Source: Escherichia coli (lineage in GTDB: Bacteria > Pseudomonadota > Gammaproteobacteria > Enterobacterales > Enterobacteriaceae). Taken from it: 64,000 bases of DNA. Below, piece after piece: positions 19,043 to 20,685 of the stretch. The notes under the pieces were generated by a model. It was given only the letters and a program-made list of their open reading frames with translations, was not told the origin of the DNA and did not search any database. Where the stretch lies: the NCBI RefSeq assembly GCF_003790525.1, contig NZ_CP033635.1. One strand, given 5' to 3'. Numbering within the stretch: position 1 is the first letter of the stretch; each line of letters begins with the position of its first letter. The position numbers were made by a program, and so were the translations under genes.

Positions 19043-20685
19043 GATGAGAGATCTCCGTTGATTTGGATTGACTTCACATCATTAATCACCGCGGTAAAAC
19101 TTTACGGCATCCGGCATTGAGCAATGCTACAACTCTCTGATTAAGAGTGATTGAAACGGAACAAACCATCCCGGAACGAAAAGATAATTCTACACGCAGG
19201 GTAAAAACACTCAAGAACAGCGAATGGATTTAAAAACGACATGGACAACGAGAAAAGTCAGAAGGGAAAAGGATCCACAGAACATTCGAACAAAACACCA
19301 GAAACGCAACCAGAACGCTTCCTGGTAATGCAAATCAACAACAACCCCAAAACCTACAGCTTAATCACACAACTCAATCACGGATGTGAATGACACGTTT
19401 AAAACCTGTTTACAGATAAACCCCGCCACAAGAACAAAAATCACCAACATCAGAATCGATTTTCTCATCCTGAAAAAGTTACGTTTCACTACGCACCATA
19501 AAAACGATTAACCATCGATAACGTAAACCTTATCTGAATCAAAAACACCAAAACCGTTCATCACACTTTCGCAATGCAAGAAGAAACCTCATGACAAAAA
19601 GAATGACCTTACACGGAAAAGAAAACGTCAGGAATCGTTAATGCCTCAATCTGATTGTTATCAAAACATCCAGAAAGTCGTTTAACAGAATCGTCGTAAG
19701 CACATCGAAAAAAACGTCAGATTACTTCAGGAAAGTTCGGGTTGATTTAGCGTAAAGATACTTTTCTCATGCTAACGTCGAAACTCGAAATCTTAGGAAA
19801 GGTTAAACGTAACATCAGTAAAATCGAATAGCAGATTGATTGCTGAAGCAGAAAGGTTTTACAGCAGCATTAAACTGATTTAGTTAACGTAAAGATTTAC
19901 TAAACTGGATGTGTATAGCAATGCTTAACGAAAACAATTGTAGAAGTGTTTATGAAAATACGTGTATAACACTTACTGAAATGCTTAGTAAAAATACTTA
20001 GTAAAATATGTGTATATAGTATCATACCGACATTCTCAACATCTTCAGACTTCCATACATACTGGGTGTTAATTTTTCACTTTTACAGCCAGCATGGAGT
20101 TTTCTGTCCTAAAAACAGAGCAGATTTACTCTGGAATTATTTTTCTGCCCTCGTATTTCAGGCCCCAGAAAAGACAATCCGAAGCAAACCGTTTGTCAAC
20201 CTCCATATCATCTTTTACCCCCGGAAAGTGATCGCGTTTTACAACCAGAATGACAGCCATACTGATTATGTCGTCTCCCGGCCCCCTTCACATATAACAT
20301 GCATGTCTGTCATTGCTTACTGCTCTACATGACAGGATTTCACATACAGGATGCGCATTCAGTGTTTTTATCGCCACTATAACAGACAGATTACTGTCGC
20401 TTTTACTCTTCAGATTGTTAATCTGACCACAAGAACAGTCGAACAGTACAACGACACCCCCAAGGAGAATATGAGCCGTAGTTGATAGCATGTTTTATTT
20501 TATTATGAATAGGTCAAGAAATAGTTCTTGATATGTCTGGAATAGTTTTGTGAATAGTTCTAGAATATCCCCATAATCAGCTTTGAAGTGCTTGCAGGGT
20601 GATATTTTTATTGATCCCCTTGCATATACAACTGACATGTGATGGTGAAAATCACCAGAAAAGAAAACGATTGAGGCGTAATCAG

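Follow-up and report, generated by a model that had tools for sequence, protein, structure and literature searches.

Next to a gene of the YagK/YfjJ ('inovirus Gp2') family, referred to here as Gp2, a 64-kb stretch of Escherichia coli DNA (the window) holds a tract of 1643 bases, 19043-20685, which raises the question of what this DNA does and whether it belongs with the protein encoded beside it. The original prediction had proposed a replication origin or nick site for the neighboring initiator-like genes or, alternatively, a structured non-coding RNA locus or the promoter hub of the adjacent genes. The new finding reported here is a 13-mer, ACTCTGGAATTAT, that recurs throughout the Gp2 family, together with its repeat module. 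We tentatively favor, at a little short of even, a reading in which 19043-20145 is a non-coding, cis-acting DNA partner of Gp2, whose distal module and 13-mer would be recognized, and possibly nicked, by this protein.

Homologues of Gp2 with 36-44% identity were found in Brenneria, in Providencia, on a Klebsiella plasmid and on unassigned contigs. Most of these loci have the same gene order, with Gp2 followed by AlpA on one side of an intergenic region of around 450-2100 nt and divergent genes for a GTPase, DUF932, antirestriction and RadC proteins on the other, and the Gp2-AlpA pairing is conserved across genera. The intergenic regions of these other genera cannot be aligned to the tract of E. 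coli. The best-kept 12-mer of the tract in seven of them was ACTCTGGAATTA, at 20128, with a score that was reached by none of 100 shuffles; it is exact in two regions, carries one mismatch in Providencia and two mismatches in three more. The 13-mer is exact in loci L020 (the Klebsiella plasmid), L033, L155 and L158, and shows one mismatch in L031 (Providencia) and two in L030 (Brenneria), L032 and L021. Four further loci were viewed after the motif had been defined: two have it without any mismatch (345 and 899 nt upstream), and the other two have variants with three mismatches. Its orientation relative to Gp2 is the same throughout, at distances of 114-1675 nt. With up to two mismatches allowed, the element is expected by chance about 0.05 times per kb, and it occurs once in the window. 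Weaker variants lie 114-250 nt upstream of Gp2 on a Citrobacter plasmid (L022) and of yfjJ and yagK in strain K-12, three loci that do not have the divergent operon; at yagK and yfjJ the adjacent alpA is also absent, so that the element accompanies Gp2 even where both are missing. A metagenome search with TWACTCTGGARTTATC was uninformative, since chance matches are expected in so huge a collection: among the 120 matches listed, none stood beside a Gp2 homologue.

In E. coli, an iteron-like array is flanked by two imperfect direct repeats, each about 55 nt long, and the 13-mer lies in the right one (Table 1). The local alignment score of both copies (31) was reached by 3 of 1000 shuffles (p ~0.003). 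Within the array, AYGTGTAT is found three times (19909, 19960 and 20008; 51 and 48 nt apart), which bears out the three-fold repetition at intervals of roughly 50 bp described earlier for 19905-20030; interleaved with it is RCTTAnYRAAA, at 19923, 19971, 19983 and 19996. A 13-nt tandem, AAATRCTTAGTAA, was also detected (2.2 copies, Tandem Repeats Finder score 49). Plain k-mer enrichment in the tract did not exceed that of shuffled sequences (counts of 3 were within the shuffle maxima), and it is because whole units have been gained and lost between islands, not because of k-mer counts, that we consider the repeats as real, evolving units: in 14 E. coli islands, whose alignment also underlies the divergence values given below, the copy number ranges from 3 to 7 for AYGTGTAT and from 1 to 5 for RCTTAnYRAAA. 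The CCGACATTCTCAA block directly after the array is unchanged in these loci, and the distal block as a whole (19790-20145) shows intermediate conservation with invariant runs. CCGACAT is found after the repeats in the Providencia locus L031 too, although the extended similarity was not significant (p ~0.13), and ATGTGT-type repeats are present in the intergenic regions of Brenneria (three, forward) and Providencia (three, reverse). Beyond the 13-mer, similarity of the distal module between genera was not significant (p 0.04-0.8), and the repeated 6-mers shared across genera were mostly AT-rich words and hence uninformative. About 110 nt separate the array, as candidate binding locus, from the 13-mer, as candidate nick sequence.

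The protein encoded beside the tract has the features of a nickase, and the 'HUH-type' label given to it in advance stands. Gp2 matches the Pfam families YagK_YfjJ_C (E = 1e-35) and REP_ORF2-G2P (E = 6e-9) and contains the three motifs of rolling-circle Rep proteins, IRVDLRF, HYHVILLL (the HUH motif) and YLVKYETK (YxxK, with the Tyr). Thus the tract adjoins a gene for an HUH endonuclease with its catalytic Tyr, as a double-strand origin (dso) would. The nickase fold is nearest to the origin-binding domains of parvovirus NS1 and adeno-associated virus (AAV) Rep, while a profile of the Gp2 family gave no match among the protein sequences of the PDB. Gp2 is a bare HUH domain, 190-240 aa across the family, in which a helicase domain is absent. 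Family members on plasmids or in phage records were only parts of captured island fragments or bore a very weak resemblance to microvirus Rep proteins. In the 243-aa E. coli protein, about 40 aa of low complexity are inserted (residues 154-186, pLDDT < 50) that its relatives of 189-222 aa do not have. Its gene diverges by 5% at codon positions 1+2 against 8% at four-fold sites, a comparatively high value that suggests relaxed or diversifying selection.

Origin-binding nickases of a Gp2-like fold recognize tandem repeats beside a nick site. The variable array and the 13-mer conserved across genera upstream of this family fit a cognate cis site for an initiator-like protein, and an origin function seems plausible. 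The functional core of such a candidate cis region would be a distal module (19856-20145, ~290 bp) formed by the array, the 55-nt repeat that brackets it and the 13-mer in the right copy. Its role might be that of a rolling-circle origin once the island is excised, that of an autoregulatory operator or, by analogy with other Rep systems, both. According to this proposal, the repeats would be the binding locus of the HUH protein and the 13-mer the site that it contacts or cuts; once the island had been excised by its integrase with AlpA, the protein would nick one strand at the module, host enzymes would copy the circle in rolling-circle mode, primed by the nick, and the same binding might feed back on the expression of Gp2 and alpA. 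We infer Gp2 as the binder, as well as nicking and the ensuing replication. Regarding the earlier suggestion of an origin or nick site, non-coding DNA, an iteron-like array of variable copy number and a cross-genus 13-mer speak for it, and the features expected of the nick site itself do not, as described below.

Several observations weigh against this proposal. A nick site set on a conserved hairpin or cruciform, typical of a dso, was not found: when the surroundings of the 13-mer were folded as DNA in seven loci, only weak, non-homologous hairpins appeared (z from -1.9 to +0.9). The hairpin CAGAG-N8-CTCTG in the right copy of the E. coli repeat reaches -3.2 kcal/mol as DNA (z = -1.3) and has no counterpart in other genera. 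Comparison of the M13 (+) origin with the seven 13-mer contexts gave nothing above shuffles (the best value, that of the E. coli context, was p ~0.02 before correction for 14 tests), so there is no likeness to the nick and binding region of gpII in Ff-type origins, and we know of no similarity between the 13-mer and other known nick sequences. In E. coli, 0.9-1.1 kb separate the module from the gene, a distance that is uncommonly large for a rolling-circle origin. Divergence in the distal block is 12%, against 8% at synonymous sites of the gene, so that, the 13-mer aside, its conservation within E. coli is by itself no proof of constraint. A divergent paralogue type, Gp2-B, with HAH in place of HYH, does not have the 13-mer. 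Scans of viral contigs (IMG/VR) with both DNA and protein did not find the element, and the literature searched held no experimental evidence of replication of such islands. Moreover, binding could be due to a host protein or to a different conserved protein of the island, for example AlpA.

The tract is non-coding. The longest open reading frames (ORFs) in 19043-20065 have 40-50 aa, in agreement with the claim that none of 60 aa or more exists there, and the first ORF of at least 60 aa is 20066..20332. In the 14 homologous tracts the longest stop-to-stop frame spans 56-95 aa, except in three with an inserted 176-aa gene. A coding function is rejected because the alignment contains frame-breaking indels, of 1, 2, 5, 11, 13 and 20 nt, and because the start codon of a small annotated ORF is deleted in some relatives; neither a kept reading frame nor indels in multiples of three, as in a gene or pseudogene, were observed. 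A long, conserved and ORF-free region could also be a structured RNA locus, and a frameshifted RNA chaperone gene of the ProQ/FinO family on the same island (L001 5760-6268, window ~15800-16310) hints at RNA-based control somewhere in the element. Nevertheless, this alternative of the original prediction is not supported, and we consider it very improbable. An Rfam search over 17000-23000 at E <= 1 returned nothing in the tract, its sole match being PhotoRC-I inside the Gp2 coding sequence (18552-18619, minus strand; 19.9 bits against a gathering score of 45, E = 0.1), which is almost certainly due to chance. Folding of the whole tract and of windows on both strands gave no stability above shuffles, with z between -2.6 and +1.1 and no coherent block (in 19150-19700, z was ~0 for either strand). 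Per 120 nt, the A/C-rich strand gains just -6 to -12 kcal/mol from folding, and the indels are scattered.

The tract is a divergent intergenic region that begins at the Gp2 start codon and lies upstream, not downstream, of Gp2. The adjacency noted originally is thus correct and the side is not: the tract had been placed beyond the gene, and it abuts its ATG. It is 100% identical over all 1643 bases to E. coli strain NRZ14408, in which, as in related strains, the RefSeq annotation indicates a CP4-57/CP4-44-like genomic island. Matches to the tract were obtained in 1,876 of 5,426 complete E. coli genomes, with at least 80% of its length covered in 512. The shared part corresponds to the first ~1,100 bases, with 72-100% identity in distant-mode BLAST; in the E. 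coli genomes examined this 1.1-kb block always abuts the Gp2 start codon, and the DNA to its right varies with the cargo gene. Therefore the 1.6-kb tract was not a single unit: only 19043-20145 constitutes the module conserved with Gp2, ending at TTTACTCTGGAATTATTT, at the 13-mer, and the remaining part occurs only where the island carries the same cargo gene. Together with Gp2, the module has also moved to an IncI plasmid. No homologues of the tract were detected in the K-12 elements CP4-57, CP4-6 and CP4-44, so functional data from K-12 cannot be transferred to it, with the exception of those on the yagK spacer. A protein scan of genome contigs with Gp2 yielded only two close loci, and in the literature on yfjJ, yagK, 'inovirus Gp2' and PF11726 no study was found on the function of Gp2 or on the tract.

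Constraint is distributed unevenly along the module. In the gene-proximal block the mean pairwise divergence is 2.8%, compared with 8.1% for the four-fold sites of the neighboring gene, and 19052-19083 and 19094-19108 are invariant over the 14 loci; the block holds the Shine-Dalgarno sequence (GGAG, minus strand) and the near-palindrome GTAAA-AC-TTTAC. Between it and the distal block lies a spacer with base fractions of A 0.426, C 0.240, G 0.151 and T 0.183, compared with ~0.25 each in the window. As had been noticed by eye, its + strand is rich in A+C and poor in G, and it is in fact the most extreme 550-nt stretch of the window in this respect (z = 4.6); AT skew in the tract rises to +0.43 and GC skew falls to -0.34. 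The spacer differs by 22% among islands, faster than four-fold sites (8%), while its skewed part keeps A at ~0.42 and G at ~0.14 in all variants despite 20-40% divergence, and the Providencia intergenic region, which cannot be aligned with the tract, is also A-rich and G-poor on the same strand (A 0.43, G 0.07). The spacer is kept for its composition, not for its sequence. The + strand of the spacer has a minimum free energy (MFE) of only -6 to -17 kcal/mol per 120 nt. Over 19343-19543 it contains 25-29% C and 10-11% G with an MFE of -6 to -9 kcal/mol per 120 nt, which corresponds to the stretch of at least ~80 nt of C-rich, G-poor, unstructured RNA that defines a Rho utilization (rut) site. 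Judged by composition, it would resemble a Rho loading site if transcribed rightward; transcribed toward Gp2, it would be C-poor. No periodicity of A-tracts at 10-11 bp, a sign of intrinsic bending, was seen above shuffles. The motif ACGTAA / CGTAAA(G) appears four to five times in both orientations (19479, 19521, 19807 and 19887, with CTTTACG at 19100), a count within shuffle maxima. In several E. coli islands an insertion of ~880 nt, with a 176-aa hypothetical gene on the + strand, interrupts the spacer at window position ~19228, and therefore the tract tolerates the insertion of cargo; the inserted protein gave no match in PADLOC.

These properties give weight to the main, serious rival explanation, to which we assign a real chance, though below that of a Gp2-bound site: control would be purely transcriptional, without nicking or replication, and the region would be a divergent promoter/operator hub between two core gene rows, Gp2-alpA leftward and cargo, GTPase, DUF932, antirestriction, RadC and toxin-antitoxin genes rightward. 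The repeats and the 13-mer would then be operators for AlpA or another regulator of the island or the host, the AT-rich DNA would be silenced by H-NS, and the C-rich, unstructured + strand would load Rho and thereby end transcription that runs rightward or antisense. Consistent with this are the GC content of 0.32-0.44, the excess of C (24-29%) over G (10-15%) on a + strand with almost no folding, and the retention of a long divergent intergenic region in the Brenneria, Providencia, Klebsiella plasmid and unassigned loci. Also, the 13-mer taken along the sense strand of Gp2 is RATAAY-TCCAGAGT, which includes a -10-like hexamer, and the homologous yagK-yagL spacer of K-12 has a constitutive sigma-70 promoter, mapped by genomic SELEX (systematic evolution of ligands by exponential enrichment), and is listed as H-NS-bound (PMC3946193). 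However, this hexamer lacks a consistent -35, and the yagK copy of the element precedes the -35 of that constitutive promoter (TTTAGA-16-TATAAT) by ~45 nt; since it lies upstream of the mapped promoter and is no part of it, the 13-mer is not simply the yagK promoter or its -10. Nor is CCAGAGT, the best-conserved part of the element, made up of promoter bases. A consensus scan of the tract gave two promoter-like sites against 5.6 in shuffles, neither of them conserved. The promoter hub considered at the outset is in accord with the divergent gene order, which is conserved in other genera. A hub, moreover, does not explain why the 13-mer follows the HUH gene even where there is no divergent operon, and leaves a catalytically intact HUH nickase as its invariant partner unaccounted for.

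Two further interpretations are less likely. The module could be an untranslated leader of ~1.08 kb of the Gp2-alpA operon, on a minus-strand transcript starting at the distal module. The end of conservation exactly at the 13-mer would fit, as would the AATAAT or GATAAT held in its sense-strand form, a TTGAGA-17-TATACA recognized by eye on the minus strand, which overlaps CCGACATTCTCAA and the last iteron and falls below the scan threshold, and a sense strand with T>A and G>C, the direction expected of a transcribed non-template strand; a terminator-like hairpin followed by a U run is present on the minus strand at 20133-20106. We regard such a leader as improbable, because the region gives no structure signal, evolves faster than synonymous sites (22% against 8%) and accommodates an entire gene in several islands, the hairpin is not conserved in other genera, a -35 is missing and the K-12 yagK promoter lies downstream of the 13-mer element. 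Slightly more improbable still is that the tract is a decayed gene or neutral filler, with repeats produced by slippage and a skew left by an old membrane-protein gene or by mutation bias. The fast divergence of the A/C-rich part, beyond that of the neighbor's synonymous sites, the short broken frames on the minus strand and the tolerated insertions would suit decay. Against it stand a composition held in every variant and repeated in the unalignable Providencia spacer, a proximal block under stronger constraint than synonymous sites, a 13-mer conserved across genera in fixed orientation and the failure to find any homologous coding version in more than 20 loci.

Known systems offer partial parallels for a module that partners Gp2. 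At AAV origins, tandem repeats bound by Rep lie near the nick site, pMV158 combines direct repeats with a nick locus, and the circular Rep-encoding single-stranded (CRESS) DNA viruses combine iterons with a nonanucleotide. Like the dso of these HUH Rep systems (parvovirus/AAV, pMV158-type, CRESS-DNA), the island has an HUH gene beside non-coding tandem repeats and a widely conserved short element, and the nearest fold to Gp2 is the parvovirus NS1/Rep origin-binding domain. Unlike them, it has no conserved stem-loop, its module is ~1 kb from the gene with a 550-nt skewed spacer in between, the HUH protein (190-240 aa) is helicase-free and the element is integrated in the chromosome, replication being here a proposal. 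With the Ff phages (M13/f1) there is a family tie, through the Pfam link of Gp2 to inovirus G2P (PF23343), and one of position, since in Ff a long intergenic region that immediately precedes gene II contains the origin, as the tract precedes Gp2; in contrast, the 13-mer context shows no M13 (+) origin similarity, the tract has no hairpins comparable to A-E of Ff, and gpII, with 410 aa, is only distantly related. In the Staphylococcus aureus pathogenicity islands (SaPI) and phage-inducible chromosomal islands (PICI) the origin is next to pri-rep, and in P4 the alpha protein binds ori and crr. The island likewise has an integrase, AlpA and direct repeats in variable number, and relatives carry a YfjI/DUF3987 primase-helicase-like gene, but its initiator candidate is an HUH nickase instead of a helicase-type Rep, its repeats are unrelated in sequence, and searches of viral contig collections did not find the element. 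The H-NS/Rho-silenced regions of islands, such as the yagK-yagL spacer of CP4-6 in K-12, are similarly AT-rich and divergent with a C>G, unstructured strand, although the tract is much longer than that spacer and has the family-specific 13-mer and a repeat array tied to an HUH gene.

A class of Pseudomonas islands transduced as satellites of a jumbo phage has inovirus Gp2-like, AlpA, RadC and YqaJ proteins as likely core genes, and the excised island circularizes or concatenates (PMC12595487, 2025). As islands with the same core genes move as satellites, a role of the HUH protein in replication is worth testing. A bolder proposal, which we consider rather doubtful, is that ACTCTGGAATTAT and the array represent an unrecognized origin/nick element of the whole stand-alone YagK/YfjJ HUH family, the rolling-circle site of excised islands that integrate at tRNA or tmRNA genes in Enterobacterales, with replication feeding packaging or transfer and the spacer functioning as a single-strand or Rho-loading zone or as an insulator. 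If so, the family would span CP4-57/CP4-6-like elements, many pathogenicity and defense islands and relatives of the jumbo-phage-riding islands of Pseudomonas. Islands of this kind, with an integrase, AlpA, a YagK/YfjJ HUH protein, RadC, DUF932, antirestriction and CbtA modules along with virulence and defense cargo, are carried by one in three complete E. coli genomes and by many Enterobacterales besides. The 13-mer and its repeat module thus provide a cheap experimental handle and a possible marker for annotating them; should the region be only a silenced promoter hub, the finding would be an ordinary one.

Table 1. Positions of the tract's features and of neighboring genes (window coordinates unless a locus is named).
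Feature	Position	Strand	Remarks
Leftward gene row		-	Gp2 (first gene), 190-aa ORF, alpA, 182-aa ORF
alpA	17077-17313	-	AlpA-family excisionase-type helix-turn-helix gene, 78 aa; downstream of Gp2; NCBIfam and PHROG matches
Gp2 (YagK/YfjJ family)	18311-19042	-	243 aa; ATG at 19042
Gene-proximal constrained block	19043-19110		Invariant runs
A/C-rich, G-poor spacer	19150-19700	+	T/G-rich on the Gp2 sense strand; essentially unstructured single strand
Left copy of ~55-nt direct repeat (TTTTACAGCAGCAT...AGATTTACTAAACTGGA)	19856-19909	+	Imperfect; flanks the array; highly conserved among E. coli loci
Iteron-like array	19909-20015	+	AYGTGTAT and RCTTAnYRAAA interleaved
Invariant CCGACATTCTCAA block	20027-20039	+	Directly after the array
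Right copy of flanking direct repeat	20080-20135	+	Contains weak hairpin CAGAG-N8-CTCTG at 20116-20133
13-mer ACTCTGGAATTAT	20128-20140	+	Antisense to Gp2; marks the right boundary of the conserved module
Variable right part of the tract	20146-20685	+	540 bp; upstream region of the 262-aa cargo ORF; outside the conserved module
262-aa cargo ORF	20686-21474	+	Right of the tract; followed by a 317-aa ORF on the minus strand
Genes further right		+	YfjP-like GTPase, DUF932, antirestriction gene, RadC, DUF987, YeeU/CbtA
~880-nt insertion	L009 ~2690-3570; L018/L019 1470-2000; L027 1801-2331		In the spacer of other E. coli islands

Regarding the genes around the tract, the 190-aa ORF between Gp2 and alpA (17382-17954, minus strand) gave a faint Pfam match to YagK_YfjJ_C (E = 0.46). 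It may be a degenerate second gene of the HUH family, and it is probably the 'second' YagK-like gene of the original prediction. Two roles from other systems were considered for the locus and rejected. For Q-like antitermination by AlpA, the DNA-contact residues (128-142) of the Pseudomonas aeruginosa protein, whose structure has been studied, lie beyond the 78 aa of the AlpA encoded here. For an origin of transfer (oriT) with its leading region, the rightward genes point away from the tract, opposite to leading-region genes in F-like plasmids.

In the variable right part, direct repeats of the GAATAGTT type at 20507-20564 (25-nt units, 33 nt apart) overlap a promoter-like TTGTGA-18-CATAAT at 20548-20577, an arrangement that looks like the operator/promoter of the 262-aa cargo ORF. 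The window has the ORF in intact form; in NRZ14408 it is split by an insertion of the IS3 family (L001 10821-12049, window ~20860). The neighboring cargo ORFs received no assignment from PADLOC, NCBIfam or PHROGs.

The Gp2-B paralogue type was seen in two settings. In plasmid pNDM5_LS003 a 1.6-kb ORF-free region (L013 9521-11117) precedes a second, 188-aa paralogue, of this type; the strand of the region that is antisense to this gene is rich in A, its sequence is not similar to the tract, and ATGGAT is present eight times in a single orientation, against 0.56 expected. A contig from a phage preparation (L012; OR844780.1, 'Escherichia phage ECO111 5-P', 4468 bp, unverified, coverage 3.7) carries a Gp2-B-type gene with 42% identity followed by a 537-aa ORF, and could represent island DNA in a lysate, or contamination.

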